This document shows positions 3,447 through 44,895 of a stretch of 44,895 bases of DNA, in pieces. The position numbers were made by a program, and so were the translations under genes. Position 1 is the first letter of the stretch. Each line of letters opens with the position of its first letter. The notes under the pieces are model-generated. The model saw only the letters and a program-made list of their open reading frames with translations. It was not told the origin of the DNA and did no database searches. The stretch comes from Escherichia phage VEc3. The stretch is taken from sequence record NC_047899.1. One strand, written 5' to 3'.

Positions 3447-6074
3447 ATGCAAGACCTACACGCTATTCAACTTCAACTTGAAGAAGAAATGTTTAACGGC
3501 GGTATCCGTCGCTTTGAAGCGGACCAACAACGCCAGATTGCATCCGGTAATGAATCAGACACGGCATGGAATCGCCGCTTATTGTCCGAGTTAATCGCGC
3601 CAATGGCTGAAGGCATTCAGGCATACAAGGAAGAGTATGAAGGTAAAAGAGGCCGTGCACCGCGTGCATTAGCTTTCATTAACTGCGTAGAAAACGAAGT
3701 GGCAGCATATATCACGATGAAAATCGTTATGGATATGCTGAACACGGATGTAACCTTGCAGGCTATAGCCATGAATGTAGCTGACCGCATTGAGGACCAA
3801 GTACGTTTTAGCAAGCTGGAAGGTCACGCCGCCAAATACTTTGAGAAAGTTAAGAAGTCACTTAAGGCAAGTAAGACTAAATCATATCGCCATGCGCACA
3901 ACGTAGCGGTCGTGGCTGAGAAGTCAGTAGCTGACCGTGACGCTGATTTCTCTCGCTGGGAGGCGTGGCCTAAAGATACCTTGCTACAAATTGGTATGAC
4001 CTTGCTAGAAATACTGGAAAATAGTGTATTCTTCAATGGTCAGCCTGTCTTTCTTCGCACCTTGCGCACTAATGGTGGCAAGCATGGCGTTTACTACTTA
4101 CAGACTAGCGAACACGTGGGTGAATGGATAACTGCATTTAAAGAGCACGTAGCTCAGCTGAGTCCAGCCTATGCGCCTTGCGTTATTCCTCCTCGTCCGT
4201 GGGTTTCTCCGTTTAATGGTGGCTTCCATACTGAGAAAGTAGCAAGCCGTATTCGTCTAGTAAAAGGCAATCGTGAGCACGTCCGCAAGCTGACCAAAAA
4301 GCAAATGCCAGCGGTTTACAAGGCTGTTAACGCTTTGCAGGCGACTAAGTGGCAGGTTAATAAAGAGGTTTTGCAGGTAGTAGAGGACGTTATTCATCTC
4401 GACCTTGGTTATGGTGTGCCTTCCTTTAAACCACTCATCGACCGTGAGAACAAGCCAGCTAATCCAGTGCCGTTAGAGTTCCAGCACCTGCGAGGCCGTG
4501 AATTGAAAGAGATGCTAACACCGGAGCAATGGCAGGCCTTCATCAACTGGAAGGGTGAATGTACTAAGCTGTATACCGCTGAGACTAAGCGCGGCAGCAA
4601 GTCGGCGGCGACCGTCCGCATGGTAGGACAGGCCCGTAAATACAGCCAGTTTGACGCTATTTATTTTGTATATGCACTGGATAGCCGTTCACGCGTTTAT
4701 GCGCAATCTAGCACGCTCTCGCCGCAATCAAACGACTTAGGCAAGGCATTGCTCCGTTTTACCGAAGGGCAGCGTCTTGATAGCGCTGAGGCGCTTAAGT
4801 GGTTTTTGGTGAACGGGGCGAATAACTGGGGTTGGGATAAGAAAACTTTTGACGTGCGCACCTCTAACGTGCTGGATGGCGAATTTCAAGACATGTGCCG
4901 CGACATTGCAGCCGATCCGCTGACCTTCACTCAATGGGTAAATGCTGATTCCCCTTACGGCTTCCTTGCATGGTGCTTTGAATATGCGCGTTATCTGGAT
5001 GCACTGGATGAAGGCACGCAAGACCAATTCATGACGCATCTACCCGTCCATCAAGACGGTAGTTGCTCTGGTATCCAGCACTATAGCGCGATGTTACGCG
5101 ATGAAGTAGGTGCGAAAGCAGTAAACCTTAAGCCTTCTGACTTCCCTCAAGATATTTATGGCGCAGTCGCGCAGGTTGTTATCCAGAAGAATTACGCCTA
5201 CATGAATGCAGACGATGCAGTGACTTTCACATCTGGAAGCGTCACACTTACAGGTGCAGAACTGCGTAGCATGGCTAGTGCGTGGGATATGATAGGAATC
5301 ACTCGCGGATTGACCAAAAAGCCCGTAATGACACTACCTTATGGCAGCACACGTCTAACCTGCCGTGAATCAGTGATTGATTATATCGTTGATTTGGAAG
5401 AAAAAGAGGCCCAACGAGCTATTGCGGAAGGGCGTACCGCCAATCCTGTACATCCTTTTGATAATGACCGTAAGGACAGCCTGACACCTAGTGCAGCTTA
5501 TAACTATATGACGGCTTTAATCTGGCCTTCTATTTCGGAAGTGGTTAAAGCTCCTATAGTGGCAATGAAAATGATTCGTCAGCTTGCCCGTTTCGCAGCT
5601 AAAAGGAATGAAGGCTTAGAGTATACCTTGCCTACTGGCTTCATCTTGCAACAAAAGATTATGGCTACCGACATGCTACGCGTATCCACTTGCTTGATGG
5701 GTGAAATCAAGATGAGTCTACAGATTGAGACTGATGTAGTGGATGAAACGGCTATGATGGGCGCTGCTGCTCCTAACTTTGTTCACGGGCATGATGCTAG
5801 TCATCTCATCCTGACTGTATGTGACCTCGTTGACAAGGGCATTACATCCATCGCAGTCATCCATGATTCTTTCGGTACTCACGCAGGCCGTACAGCCGAT
5901 CTACGTGATAGTCTAAGGGCAGAAATGGTGAAGATGTATCAAGGCCGTAATGCCCTGCAAAGCCTGTTAGATGAGCATGAAGAACGCTGGTTAGTAGACA
6001 CCGGAATCCAAGTGCCAGAGCAAGGAGAGTTTGACCTTAACGAAATCTTAGTATCTGACTATTGCTTCGCATAA
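3447..6074 (+). CDS. DNA-directed RNA polymerase, single-subunit, SP6-type
   Basis: 875 aa; begins [32 protein letters not shown] and contains [27 protein letters not shown] and IHDSFGTH motifs; ends ...DYCFA like T7-family RNAPs. Confidence 0.95.
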
Positions 6075-6082
6075 TATTAATA

Positions 6083-6116
6083 GGCCATTCCTTCGGGAGT
6101 GGCCTTTTCTTTTACC
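6083..6116 (+). terminator. Rho-independent terminator after the RNAP gene
   Basis: GGCCATTCC-TTCG-GGAGTGGCC stem-loop (UUCG tetraloop) followed by TTTTCTTTT. Confidence 0.7.
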
Positions 6117-6147
6117 TACTACCGGTAACATTTCATTAACATAAAGT

Positions 6148-6163
6148 GTCTCACATGTGAGAC
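6148..6163. repeat. 16-bp perfect palindrome GTCTCACATGTGAGAC (copy 1)
   Basis: Exact palindrome immediately upstream of the phage promoter at 6166. Confidence 0.8.
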
Positions 6164-6165
6164 TT

Positions 6166-6188
6166 ATTTACCGGACACTATAGGATAG
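6166..6188 (+). promoter_or_regulatory. Phage RNAP promoter (ATTTACCGGACACTATAGGATAG)
   Basis: Matches the ATTTACyGGACACTATAG core; predicted +1 G at 6183. Confidence 0.6.
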
Positions 6189-6329
6189 CCGTCGGAGACG
6201 GGAAAGAAAGGGAAGATAAAGGATATAAAAGGAAGTAATAGGTATTAAAGGCTATATAGGTTATCTAGGAATACCTATTACCTTCTTCCTTCCTCTTATT
6301 ACTACTTAGAGGAAGGGCAGATCTAGGTT

Positions 6330-6345
6330 GTCTCACATGTGAGAC
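6330..6345. repeat. 16-bp perfect palindrome GTCTCACATGTGAGAC (copy 2)
   Basis: Exact palindrome immediately upstream of the promoter at 6351. Confidence 0.8.
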
Positions 6346-6350
6346 TTCGT

Positions 6351-6373
6351 ATTTACCGGACAGTATAGATAAG
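6351..6373 (+). promoter_or_regulatory. Phage RNAP promoter variant (ATTTACCGGACAGTATAGATAAG)
   Basis: Consensus-like with C to G at -5; precedes the HNH gene. Confidence 0.5.
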
Positions 6374-6395
6374 ACTAACTTACTTTGGAGGTTAC

Positions 6396-6812
6396 ATGCG
6401 TAAATCATTAGCTCAAAGAGTAGAGCAAGCAGGTTATACTATACAAGACGACGGTACTATCAAAGGTAAGCGAGGTAACATCTTGAAACCTTGGCTTCAA
6501 TCTTCAGGTTATCCAGTTGTAAATATAGTATTCAAGAAAGGTACAAAGACAACTACCCTTGTGCATCGCATAATTGCTAGTAAGTATTGTCCTTGCTCTG
6601 ACCCGTTGGCTAATGATGTAAACCACAAAGACGGAATCAAGACTAATAATGCAGCTTCTAATCTTGAATGGATTACACGTAGGCAGAACCGTAATCACTA
6701 TTTAGGTTTTGAGGACTATATGACACTTACGGCAGAGGATGCCCGTAAGAAGAATAATGAGCGCACTATTGCTCGACGTAAATTACTTAAACAGTTGAAT
6801 AATAAGGACTAA
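6396..6812 (+). CDS. HNH homing endonuclease
   Basis: 138 aa; VNHKDGIKTNNAASNLEWITRRQNRNH motif; AT-rich relative to neighbours. Confidence 0.85.
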   Translation: MRKSLAQRVEQAGYTIQDDGTIKGKRGNILKPWLQSSGYPVVNIVFKKGTKTTTLVHRIIASKYCPCSDPLANDVNHKDGIKTNNAASNLEWITRRQNRNHYLGFEDYMTLTAEDARKKNNERTIARRKLLKQLNNKD

Positions 6813-6814
6813 TT

Positions 6815-6946
6815 ATGCGTACTAACTTCGAAAAGATGACCCGTAAAGCTAACCGTTTTGACATGGAAGAAGGGCAGAAGAAAGGCAAGAAGCTGAATGT
6901 ACCTGTCCGTGACCGTGCATCTAAACGCGCTGCGTGGGAGTTCTAA
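6815..6946 (+). CDS. gp1.1-like small basic protein (43 aa)
   Basis: MRTNFEKMTRKANRFDMEEGQKKGKKLNVPVRDRASKRAAWEF resembles recalled T7 gp1.1 (MRNFEKMTKRSNRNARDFEATKGRKLNKTKRDRSHKRSWEGQ); AAGGA RBS. Confidence 0.5.
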   Translation: MRTNFEKMTRKANRFDMEEGQKKGKKLNVPVRDRASKRAAWEF

Positions 6947-6949
6947 GTT

Positions 6950-8938
6950 ATGGCTATTATTCAGAATGTACCGTGTCCTGCCTGTCAAAAGAATGGACAT
7001 GATATTACTGGCAACCATCTTATGATATTTGAGGATGGCGCTGGTTACTGTAACCGTGGTCACTTCCATGATAACGGTAAACCTTATTACCACAAGCCGG
7101 AAGGTGGCATCGAGATAACCGAGTTACCTATTACTGGCAATATCAAATATACACCTTCTCAATTCAAAGAAATGGAGAAGGAAGGGAAGATAAGCGACCC
7201 TAAGCTACGCGCCATCGCACTTGGTGGTATGCGTATGAAAGACCGTTGGGAGGTTATGAATGAGCAAGAAAGGGCAGACCAAGAAGCAGAGTGGAAACTT
7301 GATGTTGAATGGTTCCTCACGCTTAAGCGTAAGAACCTTGTATCCCGTCACATTCGAGGTGACATCGCAGCAATGTACGATGTGCGCGTTGGACACGATG
7401 AAGAGGGAAGAGTCAACCGTCACTATTATCCACGATATGAAAAGGGTGTGCTTGTTGGAGCAAAATGCCGGACGTTGCCGAAGGATTTTAAGTTCGGACA
7501 CCTAGGTAAACTCTTTGGTATGCAAGATCTTTTCGGTATGAACACTTTGTCTCACGTGTTAGACAAGGGGAGACGAAAGGATTGCTTGCTTATTGTAGGC
7601 GGTGAACTTGATGCACTAGCAGCGCAGCAGATGCTCCTTGATTCTGCCAAGGGTACTAAGTGGGAAGGCCAGCCATACCATGTATGGTCTGTCAACAAAG
7701 GTGAGTCTTGCCTTGAAGAGATAGTGCAGAACCGTGAGCATATCGCCCAATTCAAGAAGATTATTTGGGGCTTTGATGGGGATGGGGTTGGGCAGAAGCA
7801 GAACCAGCAAGCGGCTCGCCTGTTTCCCGGCAAATCCTATATCCTTGAATATCCTTCTGGTTGCAAAGATGCCAACAAGGCATTGATGGCTGGCAAGGCT
7901 AAAGAATTTGTGGATGCTTGGTTTAATGCAAAGTCATCTGATGAAGTCTTTGGTAGCCAGATTAAATCTATCGCATCTCAAAGAGATAAGCTCAAGGCTG
8001 CACGTCCAGAACAAGGGCTGTCATGGCCTTGGCCTAAGCTAAACAAGGTAACACTGGGTATCCGTAAGAACCAGCTTATCATTATAGGTGCAGGCTCTGG
8101 TGTAGGTAAGACTGAGTTCCTCCGTGAAGTAGTTAAGCATCTCATTGAAGAACACGGTGAATCTGTAGGCATCATTTCTACAGAAGACCCGATGGTCAAG
8201 GTGTCCCGTGCTTTTATCGGTAAGTGGATTGATAAGCGTATTGAGTTACCTCCAACCAATGACCCGAAAGAAGACGGATACCGTGAGGTGTTCGACTACA
8301 CCGAGGAAGAAGCTAACGCCGCCATTGATTATGTAGCTGATACAGGTAAGCTGTTTGTAGCTGACCTAGAAGGTGACTATTCGATGGAGAAGGTAGAGCA
8401 AACTTGCCTAGAGTTTGAGGCCATGGGTATTTCTAATATCATCATTGATAACTTAACGGGGATTAAATTAGATGAGCGTGCTTTTGGTGGGAAGGTTGGT
8501 GCACTTGATGAATGCGTCAAGCGGATTGGTACTATCAAAGACAGACACCCAGTTACTATATTCCTTGTATCACACCTTACACGTCCTCCGGCAAACCGTA
8601 CCCAACACGAAGAAGGTGGCGAGGTTATCCTTTCTGACTTCCGAGGCTCAGGAGCTATCGGATTCTGGGCATCTTACGCCTTGGGGATTGAGCGTAATAC
8701 AAGAGCTGAAACGCTTGACGAAAGGACTACCACGTATATCTCATGTGTCAAAGATCGCGACCAAGGTATCTTCACCGGAACCAAGATTATGCTTAAGGGT
8801 GATATTCAAACCGGACGTTTGAGAGAACCACAGGCTAGAACAAGGTCATTTGATACAGGTGAAGCAAGGCAACAAGAAGTGCCGGATTTACCGGACACTA
8901 TAGAAGAGACAACTTTTGACGATGAACAGGAGTTTTAA
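6950..8938 (+). CDS. DNA primase/helicase (gp4-like)
   Basis: 662 aa; N-terminal Cys4 zinc ribbon (CPACQ...CNRGHFH); Walker A GAGSGVGKT; acidic C-terminus ending ...DDEQEF. Confidence 0.9.
   Translation: MAIIQNVPCPACQKNGHDITGNHLMIFEDGAGYCNRGHFHDNGKPYYHKPEGGIEITELPITGNIKYTPSQFKEMEKEGKISDPKLRAIALGGMRMKDRWEVMNEQERADQEAEWKLDVEWFLTLKRKNLVSRHIRGDIAAMYDVRVGHDEEGRVNRHYYPRYEKGVLVGAKCRTLPKDFKFGHLGKLFGMQDLFGMNTLSHVLDKGRRKDCLLIVGGELDALAAQQMLLDSAKGTKWEGQPYHVWSVNKGESCLEEIVQNREHIAQFKKIIWGFDGDGVGQKQNQQAARLFPGKSYILEYPSGCKDANKALMAGKAKEFVDAWFNAKSSDEVFGSQIKSIASQRDKLKAARPEQGLSWPWPKLNKVTLGIRKNQLIIIGAGSGVGKTEFLREVVKHLIEEHGESVGIISTEDPMVKVSRAFIGKWIDKRIELPPTNDPKEDGYREVFDYTEEEANAAIDYVADTGKLFVADLEGDYSMEKVEQTCLEFEAMGISNIIIDNLTGIKLDERAFGGKVGALDECVKRIGTIKDRHPVTIFLVSHLTRPPANRTQHEEGGEVILSDFRGSGAIGFWASYALGIERNTRAETLDERTTTYISCVKDRDQGIFTGTKIMLKGDIQTGRLREPQARTRSFDTGEARQQEVPDLPDTIEETTFDDEQEF
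8886..8908 (+). promoter_or_regulatory. Phage RNAP promoter embedded in the primase/helicase 3' coding sequence
   Basis: ATTTACCGGACACTATAGAAGAG, full consensus; +1 G at 8903; encodes ...DLPDTIEE... Confidence 0.65.
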
Positions 8939-9116: not shown

Positions 9117-9132
9117 GTCTCACATGTGAGAC
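9117..9132. repeat. 16-bp perfect palindrome GTCTCACATGTGAGAC (copy 3)
   Basis: Extended stem GCTTGTCTCACA/TGTGAGACAGGC, followed by TCTTATT. Confidence 0.8.
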
Positions 9133-10260: not shown

Positions 10261-10276
10261 GTCTCACGTGTGAGAC
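10261..10276. repeat. Palindrome variant GTCTCACGTGTGAGAC (copy 4)
   Basis: One central change; extended stem GGTTGTCTCAC/GTGAGACAGCC then TTTTAT. Confidence 0.7.
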
Positions 10277-13162: not shown

Positions 13163-13230
13163 GTTATACTCAAGGTCACTTACGAGTGGCCTTTATGGAT
13201 AACTTATCCCTACTTATTTTGTCTAACATG

Positions 13231-13253
13231 ATTTACTGGACACTATAGAAGGA
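13231..13253 (+). promoter_or_regulatory. Phage RNAP promoter (ATTTACTGGACACTATAGAAGGA)
   Basis: Full consensus; +1 G at 13248. Confidence 0.7.
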
Positions 13254-13317
13254 AAGCCTAGACAATCTAGGTTTATAAGGTAGTATAGGTAATTAAGTAA
13301 ATATAGGAGATATAAAC

Positions 13318-13695
13318 ATGTCTATGGTAACTACTCTGGTATTTGTAGCTCAATACTTTCGTGGTCTGGCTAATAAGTTCAAGTCCAAGGCTATCAAAGC
13401 TATTGAGTCTCGCATCGAGGCAGTACAGGCAGAGCAAGTTAAAGTTGAAGAACATCGTAGTTCTAAAATGATTGACTGCCATAACCGCTACTATGCATCT
13501 CGTGATAACCTTAATGCACGCCAAGTCAAAGAGGTTGAAGAGATGCTGGCACGTCACCAGCAAGAGCGCGACAGTCTGAAAGCTGAATTTGAAGAGAACA
13601 AGGCATCCATCGCCCTTGTACATCAAGCCGCATCTGACAGCCTGAAGAAAGAGATTGTTATGCTGGAAATTGAGTTAGACAACCTGACCAAATAA
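13318..13695 (+). CDS. Hypothetical coiled-coil protein (125 aa), N-terminal hydrophobic segment
   Basis: Track ORF; AGGAG RBS. Confidence 0.55.
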   Translation: MSMVTTLVFVAQYFRGLANKFKSKAIKAIESRIEAVQAEQVKVEEHRSSKMIDCHNRYYASRDNLNARQVKEVEEMLARHQQERDSLKAEFEENKASIALVHQAASDSLKKEIVMLEIELDNLTK

Positions 13696-14893: not shown

Positions 14894-14909
14894 GTCTCAC
14901 ATGTGAGAC
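14894..14909. repeat. 16-bp perfect palindrome GTCTCACATGTGAGAC (copy 5)
   Basis: Two nt after the upstream stop and 15 nt before the promoter at 14925. Confidence 0.8.
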
Positions 14910-31560: not shown

Positions 31561-31576
31561 GTCTCACATGTGAGAC
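31561..31576. repeat. 16-bp perfect palindrome GTCTCACATGTGAGAC (copy 6)
   Basis: Between the two large internal virion protein genes; extended stem then TCTTTAT. Confidence 0.8.
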
Positions 31577-36810: not shown

Positions 36811-38695
36811 AGAATCACAGGCAGAGGCATTAAAGCGGTGGGAAAACCTTAAAGAACTACAAGACACTTTTAAATATACAGCGGAAGGTTTGCTTCTCTT
36901 TGCAGATACAGTTATTCATAACTTAATTGCAGGCAACCCTCATCTGATTCGTATGCAGGCGGATATCTTGAAGTTCCTATTTTACGGACACAAGTACCGC
37001 CTCATCGAAGCGCCTCGTGGTATCGCTAAGACAACACTATCAGCAATCTATACGGTATTCCGTATTATTCATGAACCGCATAAGCGTATCATGGTTGTGT
37101 CCCAAAACGCCAAGCGAGCAGAGGAAATCGCAGGTTGGGTAGTTAAAATCTTCCGTGGCTTAGACTTTCTTGAGTTTATGCTGCCGGATATCTACGCTGG
37201 GGACCGTGCATCCGTTAAGGCGTTTGAGATTCATTACACCCTACGTGGTAGTGATAAGTCTCCTTCTGTATCCTGTTACTCAATCGAAGCAGGTATGCAG
37301 GGTGCTCGTGCTGATATTATTCTAGCGGATGACGTAGAGTCGATGCAGAATGCTCGTACGGCAGCGGGCCGTGCCTTGCTTGAGGAACTGACTAAGGAGT
37401 TTGAATCTATCAACCAGTTTGGGGATATCATTTACCTTGGTACACCTCAGAACGTAAACTCTATCTACAACAACCTACCTGCTCGTGGTTACTCTGTTCG
37501 TATCTGGACTGCGCGTTACCCTTCAGTAGAGCAAGAGCAATGTTATGGCGACTTCCTTGCACCTATGATTGTTCAAGATATGAAGGACAACCCAGCACTT
37601 CGCTCAGGGTACGGGTTGGATGGTAATAGTGGTGCACCTTGTGCCCCTGAAATGTATGATGATGAAGTCCTGATTGAGAAGGAAATCTCTCAGGGTGCTG
37701 CTAAGTTCCAGCTTCAGTTCATGCTTAACACTCGCATGATGGATGCTGACAGATACCCATTACGCCTGAACAATCTAATCTTCACCTCGTTTGGTACAGA
37801 GGAAGTCCCTGTGATGCCTACGTGGAGTAATGATTCCATAAACATCATTGGTGATGCACCTAAGTACGGTAACAAGCCTACGGATTTCATGTACAGACCT
37901 GTAGCTCGCCCATACGAATGGGGTGCTGTCTCCCGCAAGATTATGTATATTGACCCTGCGGGTGGTGGTAAGAACGGAGATGAGACGGGTGTAGCCATCG
38001 TATTCCTGCACGGCACATTCATTTATGTGTATCAGTGCTTTGGTGTACCTGGCGGATACCGAGAGTCGTCCCTGAATCGCATTGTGCAGGCCGCAAAGCA
38101 GGCGGGTGTTAAAGAGGTATTCATTGAGAAGAACTTTGGTCATGGCGCGTTTGAGGCGGTAATTAAGCCGTACTTTGAACGAGAGTGGCCTGTAACTCTG
38201 GAAGAAGATTACGCCACCGGACAGAAAGAATTGCGTATCATTGAGACGCTGGAGCCGCTCATGGCAGCCCATAGGCTTATCTTCAATGCAGAGATGGTGA
38301 AGTCAGACTTTGAGTCGGTACAGCACTATCCGCTTGAACTACGCATGTCCTACAGTCTTTTCAATCAAATGTCGAACATAACGATTGAGAAGAACAGCCT
38401 ACGGCACGATGACCGCCTAGACGCCCTGTATGGTGCTATACGGCAATTAACTTCTCAGATAGACTATGACGAGGTTACACGGATTAATCGCCTCAGAGCG
38501 CAGGAGATGCGAGATTACATCCATGCTATGAACACACCTCATCTACGCAGGGCAATGCTATATGGGGATTACGGTACTGAGCGAAGAGTGACCAACACTT
38601 CCGTAGCGATGCAGCAGCGAGTTTACGGGCAGAGCTACCGAAATAAATCGGCAAGCAGAAATACACTTTCTGCAAGGATTTCAAGGACTTATTAA
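36797..38695 (+). CDS. Terminase large subunit (gp19-like)
   Basis: Walker A-like GIAKTT, YLGTPQ, FMLN, HDDRLDAL blocks as in T7 gp19; ATG 36797 with AAGGAG RBS preferred over track start 36758. Confidence 0.92.
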   Translation: MAKARESQAEALKRWENLKELQDTFKYTAEGLLLFADTVIHNLIAGNPHLIRMQADILKFLFYGHKYRLIEAPRGIAKTTLSAIYTVFRIIHEPHKRIMVVSQNAKRAEEIAGWVVKIFRGLDFLEFMLPDIYAGDRASVKAFEIHYTLRGSDKSPSVSCYSIEAGMQGARADIILADDVESMQNARTAAGRALLEELTKEFESINQFGDIIYLGTPQNVNSIYNNLPARGYSVRIWTARYPSVEQEQCYGDFLAPMIVQDMKDNPALRSGYGLDGNSGAPCAPEMYDDEVLIEKEISQGAAKFQLQFMLNTRMMDADRYPLRLNNLIFTSFGTEEVPVMPTWSNDSINIIGDAPKYGNKPTDFMYRPVARPYEWGAVSRKIMYIDPAGGGKNGDETGVAIVFLHGTFIYVYQCFGVPGGYRESSLNRIVQAAKQAGVKEVFIEKNFGHGAFEAVIKPYFEREWPVTLEEDYATGQKELRIIETLEPLMAAHRLIFNAEMVKSDFESVQHYPLELRMSYSLFNQMSNITIEKNSLRHDDRLDALYGAIRQLTSQIDYDEVTRINRLRAQEMRDYIHAMNTPHLRRAMLYGDYGTERRVTNTSVAMQQRVYGQSYRNKSASRNTLSARISRTY

Positions 38696-38716
38696 TTACT
38701 GGACACTATAGAAGGA
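38694..38716 (+). promoter_or_regulatory. Phage RNAP promoter (AATTACTGGACACTATAGAAGGA)
   Basis: Consensus core; +1 G at 38711; leader contains hairpin GGGTGTAC-TCCT-GTACACCC. Confidence 0.7.
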
Positions 38717-38860
38717 AGGCCCAGATAATAAGAGAAAATAATAGGTAATATATAGGTTAACCTAGGTTATATAGGTATGCCTTAGTATGGGTGTACTCCT
38801 GTACACCCTATTCATTACTACCTTACTACCTTACTATATTTACATAATAGGAGAGAGACA

Positions 38861-39139
38861 ATGGCTAATGATTATAGTAGTCAACCATTAACAGGTAAGT
38901 CTAAGAGAAAGCAGGTACAACTTGTAAGTGAAGAACTAATGCTTCCGGTAATCAAAAAAGAGGAAGCTAGTAAGAAAAGCAATGTCATTAATGATGCCAC
39001 CAAATCAGGTAAACAGAAAGGGGCCATGGTGTGCCTTGAAGCGGAAGGTGGTGTATTGAAGATTGCTATCGCGGTTGATGGCAAAGAAGATTCAGAGTGG
39101 AAGTTAGTAACAGTGGGAACCACTGTTACCCCAGTTTAA
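38861..39139 (+). CDS. Small protein, paralog A (92 aa)
   Basis: Shares SGKQKGAMV-LE...IA-A...W...TP with the adjacent ORF; strong RBS. Confidence 0.6.
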   Translation: MANDYSSQPLTGKSKRKQVQLVSEELMLPVIKKEEASKKSNVINDATKSGKQKGAMVCLEAEGGVLKIAIAVDGKEDSEWKLVTVGTTVTPV

Positions 39140-44308: not shown

Positions 44309-44376
44309 GCAGGTTAATATCTTAGTGTACACAAGGGCAGACTTAGGTTTGCTCTTAGTGTACCAAAGGAGGTCAC

Positions 44377-44591: not shown

Positions 44592-44895
44592 CTCGCCCTC
44601 GCCCTCGCCGGGTTGTCCCCATAGGGTGGCCTGAGGGAATCCGTCGAAGACGGGCAGGGCTGATGTACTCCTTGTACTAGCTTAGTAGTACACAAGGGCA
44701 GGCCGTACTAGTTAGCTGGTACAGCCTAGTCTTTGCTCATGTACTAGCAAGGTGGAACGCTGGAGAGCGCCTAGGACGGCCTAGGGCACGCCTTAGTGTT
44801 GGACAAGGTGAATGCCTTAGTGAAGCCTCTTAGTGCATTCCTGAGGCCATTCAGGGCGTTTATGAGGTATTGACAGGGTGGGCGTGGGTGGGCTA
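44592..44895. repeat. Right direct terminal repeat (DTR), 304 bp
   Basis: Exact copy of 1-304 at the window end; typical of T7-like linear genomes. Confidence 0.95.

Follow-up and report, generated by a model that had tools for sequence, protein, structure and literature searches.

The spacer between genes 1 and 1.1 of bacteriophage T7 holds the promoter phi1.1A, the R1.1 RNase III site, the promoter phi1.1B and an A/T-rich origin tract (PMC8373140; PMC12839067). As summarized in PMC8373140, phi1.1A and phi1.1B are the primary origins of T7, and phiOR and phi6.5 are secondary origins that are used when the primary one is deleted. Here we analyzed the corresponding spacer in Escherichia phage VEc3 (NC_047899.1). 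The window, by which we mean the whole 44,895-bp stretch, is the complete phage genome, whose two ends carry a direct terminal repeat of 304 bp (1-304 and 44592-44895), and it shares 95-99% identity with many E. coli phages of the genus Vectrevirus (K1E/K1-5-like; Molineuxvirinae, SP6 supergroup). The site is a 321-bp spacer (6075-6395) located directly 3' of the RNA polymerase gene, on a genome whose plus strand carries all the large genes. A sequence-only reading of this DNA had proposed it as the primary replication origin, built from an A/T-rich imperfect inverted repeat between two palindrome-plus-promoter modules. Our analysis suggests, as the reading with the best support and with a probability of roughly 0.45, that the region works as a T7-type, transcription-primed origin, and it shows that the conserved core of the tract is a phased array of (A/T)AGG units and not the inverted repeat.

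Because the RNA polymerase gene lies on its left and a gene 1.1 homologue on its right, the spacer is the true positional counterpart of the T7 gene 1/gene 1.1 spacer. The gene at the left boundary is also annotated as RNA polymerase in K1E and K1-5, and the gene 1.1 homologue, our right synteny anchor, is followed by a primase/helicase open reading frame (ORF; 6950-8938). The features on which the comparison relies are as follows.

3447-6074, plus strand: single-subunit phage RNA polymerase gene, homologue of T7 gene 1 (Pfam RNA_pol, E 4.5e-89; RPOL_N, E 1.5e-31)
6082-6128, plus strand: terminator-like hairpin (6082-6105; terminator scan, 10-bp stem) with a T-run to 6112, then a small second hairpin (6112-6128)
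6148-6163, no strand assigned: palindrome copy 1, GTCTCACATGTGAGAC, perfect over 16 bp and ending 2 nt before P1
6166-6188, plus strand: predicted phage promoter P1, with ATTTACCGGACACTATAG at 6166-6183, +1 at G6183 and 0 mismatches to the genome consensus
6189-6201, plus strand: H1 hairpin, CCGTC-GGA-GACGG, with a 5-bp stem and a 3-nt loop, at +7 to +19 of the P1 transcript, found in both RNA and DNA folds
6208-6272, plus strand: phased array of seven (A/T)AGG units, with AGG at 6209, 6220, 6230, 6240, 6249, 6258 and 6267
6229-6287, plus strand: imperfect inverted repeat of two 18-nt arms, 6229-6246 and 6270-6287, complementary at 16/18 positions
6288-6316, plus strand: pyrimidine-rich tract with a small hairpin, CCTTCCTCT ... 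AGAGGAAGG
6330-6345, no strand assigned: palindrome copy 2, GTCTCACATGTGAGAC, with CTAGGTT directly before it
6351-6373, plus strand: predicted phage promoter P2, with ATTTACCGGACAGTATAG at 6351-6368, +1 at G6368 and 1 mismatch (C to G at -5)
6815-6946, plus strand: homologue of T7 gene 1.1 (Pfam Phage_1_1, E 2.8e-14; 51% identity to T7 gp1.1)

On this map, the counterpart of R1.1 is 6082-6128, that of phi1.1B is P1 and that of the T7 A/T-rich tract is 6184-6329. No equivalent of phi1.1A was found upstream of the 6082-6128 hairpin, and P2 appears as an extra promoter downstream of the tract when compared with the T7 layout.

The assignment of R1.1 draws on both sequence and predicted fold. Local alignment of T7 5875-5905 to window 6097-6126 gives a score of 30, which 0 of 1000 shuffles reach. 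The 11-mer GAGTGGCCTTT occurs exactly at window positions 6097 and 13184 and at T7 positions 1456 and 5875, which we take to be the R0.5 and R1.1 RNase III sites. Within the same intergenic spacer, 6082-6128 carries GAGTGGCCTTT...ACCT.CT.CCGGT and folds into the same two hairpins as T7 R1.1, the aligned part being the 3' half of R1.1. By these likenesses the hairpin is homologous to the R1.1 RNase III site. The inverted repeat at 6229-6287 had also been considered as the R1.1 equivalent, from its place between two promoters; this idea was ruled out by the homology at 6082-6128, and the repeat shows no likeness in sequence or fold to the T7 R sites, in which a lower stem flanks the upper stem AAGGTC...GAGTGGCCTT.

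The spacer is well conserved among relatives. Its identity is 93-99% in most of about 75 Vectrevirus records (one at 89%), equal to or above that of the flanking coding DNA, and it is still recognizable at about 70% identity in Zindervirus (SP6, UAB78, BP12B, SE29 and K30) and in a Klebsiella phage group (cp4, M186, Kpp61 and Koku). A wider set was gathered by means of the polymerase C-terminus and comprises Proteus phage Pm5460, Klebsiella phage KPN7, Pectobacterium phage PP1 and Vibrio phage BD5, the latter with a polymerase C-terminus 49.5% identical to that of the window. The order terminator hairpin, palindrome, phage promoter and AGG-repeat tract is kept in all relatives compared, BD5 included, and seven or more genera of SP6-like phages share the architecture. 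BD5 is devoid of H1, of the pyrimidine-rich inverted arm and of P2. A pattern scan of IMG/VR returned 12 loci only, mostly from genomes already known. In one record, ULINTec4 (MZ997839.1), the terminator hairpin is followed by about 220 nt of near-pure poly-T annotated as a hypothetical protein, which is probably an assembly artefact.

In the genome, 12 sites correspond to the promoter consensus while 0.04 are expected, and two of the rightward promoters predicted by this match for the phage's own RNA polymerase, P1 and P2, lie in the spacer. P1, which is predicted to be the first promoter for that polymerase, is conserved in all relatives compared and is the positional equivalent of phi1.1B. 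The second promoter is kept in the enterobacterial relatives, that is in all those compared except BD5; the P2 of Pm5460 carries the same CAGTATAG as in the window, and KPN7 has AGTATAG in both promoters. From P2 the leader to the next start codon is 27 nt only. The two palindrome-then-promoter modules announced at 6148-6188 and 6330-6373 were indeed found, with 19/19 and 18/19 bases identical between the copies and a palindrome-to-promoter gap of 2 nt for P1 and 5 nt for P2.

The tract between the modules had been described as AT- and purine-rich. The first term holds for the whole of 6190-6325 (37.5% G+C against 45.0% for the genome), but the second applies only to its first 81 nt (6190-6270; 74% purine), since the next 35 nt (6271-6305) are 80% pyrimidine. 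In the 80 nt that follow P1 the purine content reaches 0.75, the genome maximum (top 0.03% of windows). This purine-rich part, of low duplex stability, contains the AGG array, whose units are spaced by 11, 10, 10, 9, 9 and 9 nt. No other phased AGG chain of the genome is as long as this one of seven: the runner-up, at a module located at 38.7 kb, has 4, and the longest chain in 100 Markov-simulated genomes was at most 5. In 9 lineages the transcript has an AGG array of 5-9 units that begins at about +26 to +31, and natural indels correspond to whole 10-nt units: +AAAGGTAATA in T205P4 (aligned to window position 6215) and +CTAGGAATAC in ULINTec6 and ULINTec4 (6262).

The imperfect inverted repeat that the sequence-only reading placed between the modules does exist, with a stem of 17-18 bp containing one mismatch and one G.U pair, and an equally good ungapped inverted repeat was obtained in 7/1000 dinucleotide shuffles of the tract. 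The emphasis put on it was, however, misplaced: its 5' arm falls inside the AGG array, and BD5 keeps the palindrome, the promoter and the AGG array without the inverted arm, which argues that the most conserved part is the array. Comparable repeats with other arm sequences are found in SP6 (4/1000 shuffles), BP12B (0/1000) and SE29 (5/1000), and the Klebsiella phages give no comparable signal (77-89/1000).

To compare the melting propensity of the tract with that of the rest of the genome, 80-bp windows were ranked genome-wide by nearest-neighbour duplex stability, with T7 as the positive control. In T7, the four least stable windows are those at phiOL, at phi6.5 (+12), at phi1.1B (+5; the A/T-rich tract of the primary origin) and at phiOR (+19); phiOL also has a replication role in T7. 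The same ranking in the window, SP6 and K1-5 places near the top the tracts downstream of the promoters P13231, P6166 (P1) and P38694 or their orthologues. At the site under study the third least stable window starts 41 nt after the P1 start site, so that an A/T-rich, easily melted tract lies immediately 3' of a promoter. The two other modules are the following.

13168-13317, plus strand: second module, with an R1.1-like hairpin (13168-13197), a promoter (13231-13248) and an AT-rich, AGG-containing leader up to the ATG at 13318
38694-38860, plus strand: third module, whose promoter lies at the end of the terminase large-subunit gene, with an AGG array, then a GC hairpin and then a pyrimidine tract behind it

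The three tracts are the top three plus-strand windows for the (A/T)AGG(A/T)(A/T) motif. In the second module, the hairpin ACTCAAGGTCACTTACGAGTGGCCTTTATG at 13168-13197 aligns to T7 5857-5888 with a score of 39 (0/1000 shuffles) and is a closer R1.1 copy than the one at 6.2 kb. The terminase large subunit that precedes P38694 was identified by Pfam (E 1.6e-35) and has the same position relative to its promoter as in T7 phiOR; the same post-terminase architecture is found in Pm5460 (38781-38950). On the minus strand, the density of the (A/T)AGG motif is highest at the left end of the genome, where 320-700 is an array of CTTAG(G/T) repeats, which are this motif read on that strand. The same holds for SP6 and K1-5, and the array recalls the repeat arrays found beside the T7 terminal repeats. 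We also noticed that AAGGGCAGA(C/T)(C/T)TAGGTT is common to 6313-6334 and 44333-44354.

A sequence of events that would account for these features can be proposed. Early host transcription would end, or be processed, at the R1.1-like hairpin 6082-6128. P1 would then fire through the 5' hairpin and into the purine-rich, easily melted (A/T)AGG array phased at about 10 nt, where its transcript may stay hybridized to the template strand because a purine-rich RNA:DNA hybrid would out-compete the weak DNA duplex. The phage DNA polymerase could extend this hybrid as a primer for rightward synthesis, and the displaced strand would let the primase/helicase, which is encoded just downstream, load for leftward synthesis. 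P2 would mainly serve to express the operon that comprises gene 1.1 and the primase/helicase gene. Accessory roles would fall to the inverted arm, which a distant relative lacks, and to the palindromes, which are members of a separate family of 8 copies. The fact that T7-origin plasmids need RNase H to be inactivated, as stated in PMC8373140, fits with an RNA:DNA-hybrid primer intermediate. Among three modules of this type (6.2, 13.2 and 38.7 kb), the one at 6.2 kb is the best candidate for a primary origin because of its synteny with T7. The word "primary" is argued here only from this synteny and from the module being the first to become available.

Several observations weigh against an origin of the T7 type at this site. 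The first is the layout: the T7 arrangement of tandem promoters both upstream of the A/T-rich tract is not found, since the tract of the window lies between P1 and P2, whereas the 83-nt tract of T7 comes after phi1.1B. The resemblance to the T7 primary origin that had been claimed thus stands for position (gene 1.1 homologue, R1.1-like hairpin, unstable tract) and fails for layout. The T7 tract is also more A/T-rich (28% G+C against 38%). In the stability ranking, the tract after P1 comes third in the window and in K1-5 and fourth in SP6, and the 13.2-kb module comes first, although the T7 primary origin is likewise only third in T7. The call of a primary origin is therefore backed by synteny and weakened by the existence of two other modules, one of them less stable. 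Furthermore, cumulative GC skew rises monotonically in the window, with no minimum or inflection. The covarying H1 and the stems containing G.U pairs indicate selection at the RNA or single-strand level as well. An origin of SP6 at the DNA polymerase gene was suggested by Dobbins 2004, as cited in PMC4837284. Finally, no replication or origin data for SP6-group phages were found in the literature searched, and the reading proceeds by analogy.

The hybrid argument also has to be restricted. When hybrid and duplex energies were scanned, 6182-6241 came out as the most RNA:DNA-hybrid-favouring 60 nt of the genome (z -3.8), and P1 was the best or second-best promoter by hybrid energy in all three SP6-group genomes. 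However, the T7 phi1.1B tract is not hybrid-favouring (+0.035), so the argument fails its T7 control and counts against the origin reading too; for the same reason purine richness is not a known origin property. RNA:DNA-hybrid energy was dropped as an origin predictor, and the hybrid bias is better described as a feature of the SP6 phage group than as a validated origin criterion. GC skew was likewise set aside as an origin locator: its change-point fit gives 7.2 kb (interval 4.6-19.7 kb) in the window and nothing in SP6, and it misses the known T7 origin. The SP6 primase reportedly uses the trinucleotide 5'-GCA-3'; the tract has one GCA (6309-6311, plus strand), a trinucleotide being too short for a meaningful sequence test.

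The alternative that survives best, although we consider it somewhat unlikely, is that the region has a role in transcription and at the RNA level only. In this case it would consist of two class II promoters and a structured 5' leader that controls the stability, processing or translation of the P1 transcript, replication starting elsewhere. The leader would be composed of H1 as a stabilizer, a long imperfect hairpin, the small hairpin and the palindrome hairpin, and could for example pair the Shine-Dalgarno-like AGG motifs with an anti-Shine-Dalgarno-like pyrimidine tract. H1 argues for such a role. It is kept in all relatives compared except BD5, and its third pair, G-C in most phages, is U-A in SE29 and KPN7 (CCTTC/GAAGG) and A-U in PP1 and T205P4 (CCATC/GATGG; CCATC-GGA-GATGG in T205P4), which amounts to compensatory changes in three independent lineages. 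These changes indicate that selection on RNA or single-strand structure is real for H1. T7 late transcripts have 5' stem-loops, and because H1 resembles them it probably stabilizes the P1 transcript. A hairpin nearly identical to H1, CCGTCGAAGACGG, is present in the terminal repeat (50-62 and 44641-44653).

For the rest of the leader the structural evidence is divided. Vectrevirus, SP6, BP12B and SE29 are each predicted to form a central hairpin whose stem sequence is specific to the lineage, the retention of this hairpin in four lineages despite different stems being what a structured leader would explain, and the plus strand folds better than the minus strand in 15/16 sequences, which are non-independent. 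The RNase III site of the homologous T7 spacer and the palindrome hairpins at 9117, 10261 and 31561, with their extended stems, U.G pairs and U-runs, go in the same direction. Nevertheless, the RNA fold of the region is only weakly better than shuffles (z -1.0 to -2.1), and the leader of the 38.7-kb module folds no better than shuffles (z +0.56). RNAalifold applied to a MAFFT alignment of 14 sequences recovered only H1 and the palindrome and not the central stem, because central stems shift between lineages, and a covariance-model search of the spacer with Rfam 15 (E up to 10) gave best scores of 11-20 bits against thresholds of 41-85, i.e., sub-threshold noise. Selection on the structure of the inverted repeat is therefore plausible but not compelling. 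Moreover, BD5 has the AGG array without any complementary arm, the homologue of T7 R1.1 is at 6082-6128 and not at the inverted repeat, and an RNA leader leaves unexplained both the ~10-nt phasing and the 10-nt indels, which the array at the center of the origin reading displays.

It could also be that the 6.2-kb region is a T7-type origin module but a secondary or back-up one, like phi6.5 or phiOR, the primary origin being either the module at 13.2 kb, which follows the DNA polymerase gene, or the post-terminase module. No 80-bp window of the genome is less stable than the tract at 13.2 kb, and this is also true in SP6 and K1-5; the closer copy of the R1.1 hairpin (score 39) lies directly upstream of its promoter, and the suggestion of an SP6 origin at the DNA polymerase gene points to the same place. 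We regard this possibility as rather unlikely. The gene-order homology with the T7 primary origin belongs to the 6.2-kb site, where there are in addition two promoters, an AGG array longer than any other and the strongest bias towards purines and hybrid formation, and the T7 primary origin is not the least stable tract of its genome either. T7 genome entry is transcription-driven, and if the same applied here the 6.2-kb module would be the first into the cell.

A further alternative involves the palindromes, which were examined over the whole genome. The 8 copies found, against 0.18 expected, are located as follows.

633-648, 6148-6163, 6330-6345, 7549-7564, 9117-9132, 10261-10276, 14894-14909 and 31561-31576: copies of the 16-bp palindrome

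The palindrome had been taken as a mark of the two modules, and it is present in both, but it is not specific to them, and a promoter follows only 3/8 copies. The sites are orthologous in K1-5 and SP6. At the position of copy 1 the palindrome is conserved in the SP6, Klebsiella, Proteus, Pectobacterium and Vibrio relatives, and the second palindrome is limited to Vectrevirus, Zindervirus and the Klebsiella group, being absent from that place in Pm5460, KPN7, PP1 and BD5. Its core changes in concert, from GTCTCAC..GTGAGAC in Vectrevirus to GTC(T/C)AAC..GTTGGAC in SP6. Copies 9117, 10261 and 31561 have extended terminator-like stems with U.G-type pairs and a T-run; in SP6, T4.G13 is seen in 6/9 copies, with the wobble on the plus strand only. 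The leftmost copy (633) is inverted. The copy at 7549-7564 is embedded in the primase/helicase ORF, where it encodes S-H-V-L-D in the window and S-N-V-L-D in SP6, so that the His/Asn codon tracks the palindrome type of the genome; it has a TTA mismatch because a perfect K1E-type palindrome there would make a TGA stop. In SP6 an in-frame ATG stands directly before this embedded copy and might be an internal start. At the left end of Pm5460 (562-600), the palindrome GTCCAACATGTTGGAC is directly followed by the phage-promoter-like ATAAAGACCACTATAGAAG, which may be a promoter of the phiOL type; in the window, the palindrome at the left end has no such promoter after it. The palindrome sequences were not mentioned in the literature searched. 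The palindrome is a separate conserved element in 8 copies. The U.G-type asymmetry, the plus-strand-only wobble, the concerted change of the core and the codon tracking of the embedded copy together point to a strand-specific hairpin read by a sequence-specific factor.

From this family and from the array it can be argued that the phased (A/T)AGG(T/A)A units and the palindromes are double-stranded DNA binding sites for a phage or host protein, as a one-face array and a dimer operator, respectively, the bound protein regulating class II promoters or organizing the DNA. A spacing of about 9.7 bp, near the helical repeat and in phase with the promoter in 9 lineages, together with whole 10-bp indels, would suit such an array. 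The identity of the palindrome core at 8 sites, its concerted change between genera, which includes the copy in the primase/helicase ORF, and the location of the leftmost palindrome upstream of the early promoters, a place that rightward transcription is not expected to cover, would suit an operator. We nonetheless hold this explanation to be improbable: no candidate binding protein was identified, the AGG core is the only conserved part of each unit, and the U.G asymmetry of the palindrome is better suited to a single-stranded hairpin than to a duplex operator. Lastly, a chance AT-rich spacer that functions only as the carrier of two promoters is hardly credible, for although many intergenic spacers are AT-rich and the z-scores for RNA folding are weak, the spacer is as conserved as the flanking coding DNA or more so in most Vectrevirus records, its architecture persists at about 70% identity and into other genera, and its AGG chain and purine content are genome-wide extremes.

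The right part of the locus differs from that of most relatives by one gene.

6396-6812, plus strand: HNH homing-endonuclease gene (Pfam HNH_3, E 2.6e-08), between the P2 leader and gene 1.1

An HNH gene is present at this position in 2/78 related records (at least 80% query cover), and it takes over the ribosome-binding site and the first codons (ATGCGTAA start) of the displaced gene, suggesting a strain-specific insertion outside the conserved element. UAB78 and BP12B have HNH genes at neighbouring positions, so that the surroundings of gene 1.1 look like an insertion hot spot. The spacer itself has no ORF with a plausible start in the ORF scan and no sigma-70 promoter in the promoter scan; a 47-aa ORF on the minus strand (6265-6408) overlaps the start of the strain-specific HNH gene and was not judged a plausible gene.

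A broader interpretation would make the phased (A/T)AGG(T/A)A arrays downstream of the three promoters an origin determinant that is deeply conserved in SP6-like phages and has not been described before, and the palindrome a cis element for a co-evolving trans-acting factor. In that interpretation, which is doubtful as it stands, the array would act either as a purine-rich element that forms an R-loop or primer, or as a one-face binding array for a factor. Phages of the K1E/K1-5 type are candidates for phage therapy, SP6 RNA polymerase is a standard tool, and no mapped replication origin for the SP6/K1E/K1-5 group was found in the literature searched. The comparison yields a testable picture, with three promoter-plus-unstable-tract modules and a stability criterion validated on T7, and the phased purine repeat, absent from T7, could explain the step from transcript to primer. 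If the origin reading is true, it would allow rational genome engineering and an orthogonal replication driven by SP6 polymerase, as with the T7 origin in the use described in PMC8373140.

Compared with the known systems, the locus is closest to the T7 primary origin (phi1.1A/phi1.1B and a 61-bp A/T-rich cluster), with which it shares the genomic slot, an R1.1-type hairpin upstream of the promoter, a rightward phage promoter whose downstream tract ranks among the least stable of the genome, and a short motif repeated in that tract, CTTAAG/CTTTAAG in T7 and (A/T)AGG (WAGG) in the window. In T7, CTTAAG/CTTTAAG peaks at 5911-6000 (4 copies, where the mean per 90 nt is 0.1) and also forms lesser clusters at phiOL and phi6.5; the A/T-rich tract of the primary origin thus holds the densest cluster, and the T7 origin tract would also be built of short repeats. 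The tract of the window is longer (~145 against 61-83 bp) and strongly purine-biased (purine share 0.75 against 0.57), and is made of 10-nt-phased repeats and their inverted complement between flanking palindromes, unlike the T7 primary origin, which has no inverted repeat of this kind. Origin function is demonstrated for T7 only. The T7 promoters phiOR, phi6.5 and phiOL likewise combine a promoter with a low-stability tract, and phiOR has the same terminase large-subunit position as the 38694 module, whereas nothing in T7 obviously matches the 13.2-kb module in position; the SP6-group modules share the phased AGG repeat and the pyrimidine tract, which the T7 replication promoters do not have.

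Two other classes of origins offer partial parallels. Iteron origins, as in plasmids and at the lambda ori, likewise have tandem direct repeats beside an easily melted region, but the units of the window are only 9-11 nt long, 7 in number, with a conserved core of 3-4 nt (WAGG); we know of no initiator of the Rep or O type in the SP6-like phage group, for which no search was made, and T7-like phages use none. In R-loop-primed origins such as ColE1 RNA II and the mitochondrial CSB region, as well as at the retroviral polypurine tract, a purine- or G-rich transcript persists as a hybrid primer; the locus resembles them in that the first 60 nt of the P1 transcript have the most hybrid-favouring energy balance of the genome. 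The differences are that neither an RNase H processing site nor a primer 3' end is known in the window and that the T7 origin is without such a bias. Overall, what the locus has in common with a described origin is its T7-homologous position, whereas the phased purine repeats, the inverted arm, the flanking palindromes and the placement of the tract between the promoters set it apart from the T7 origin.

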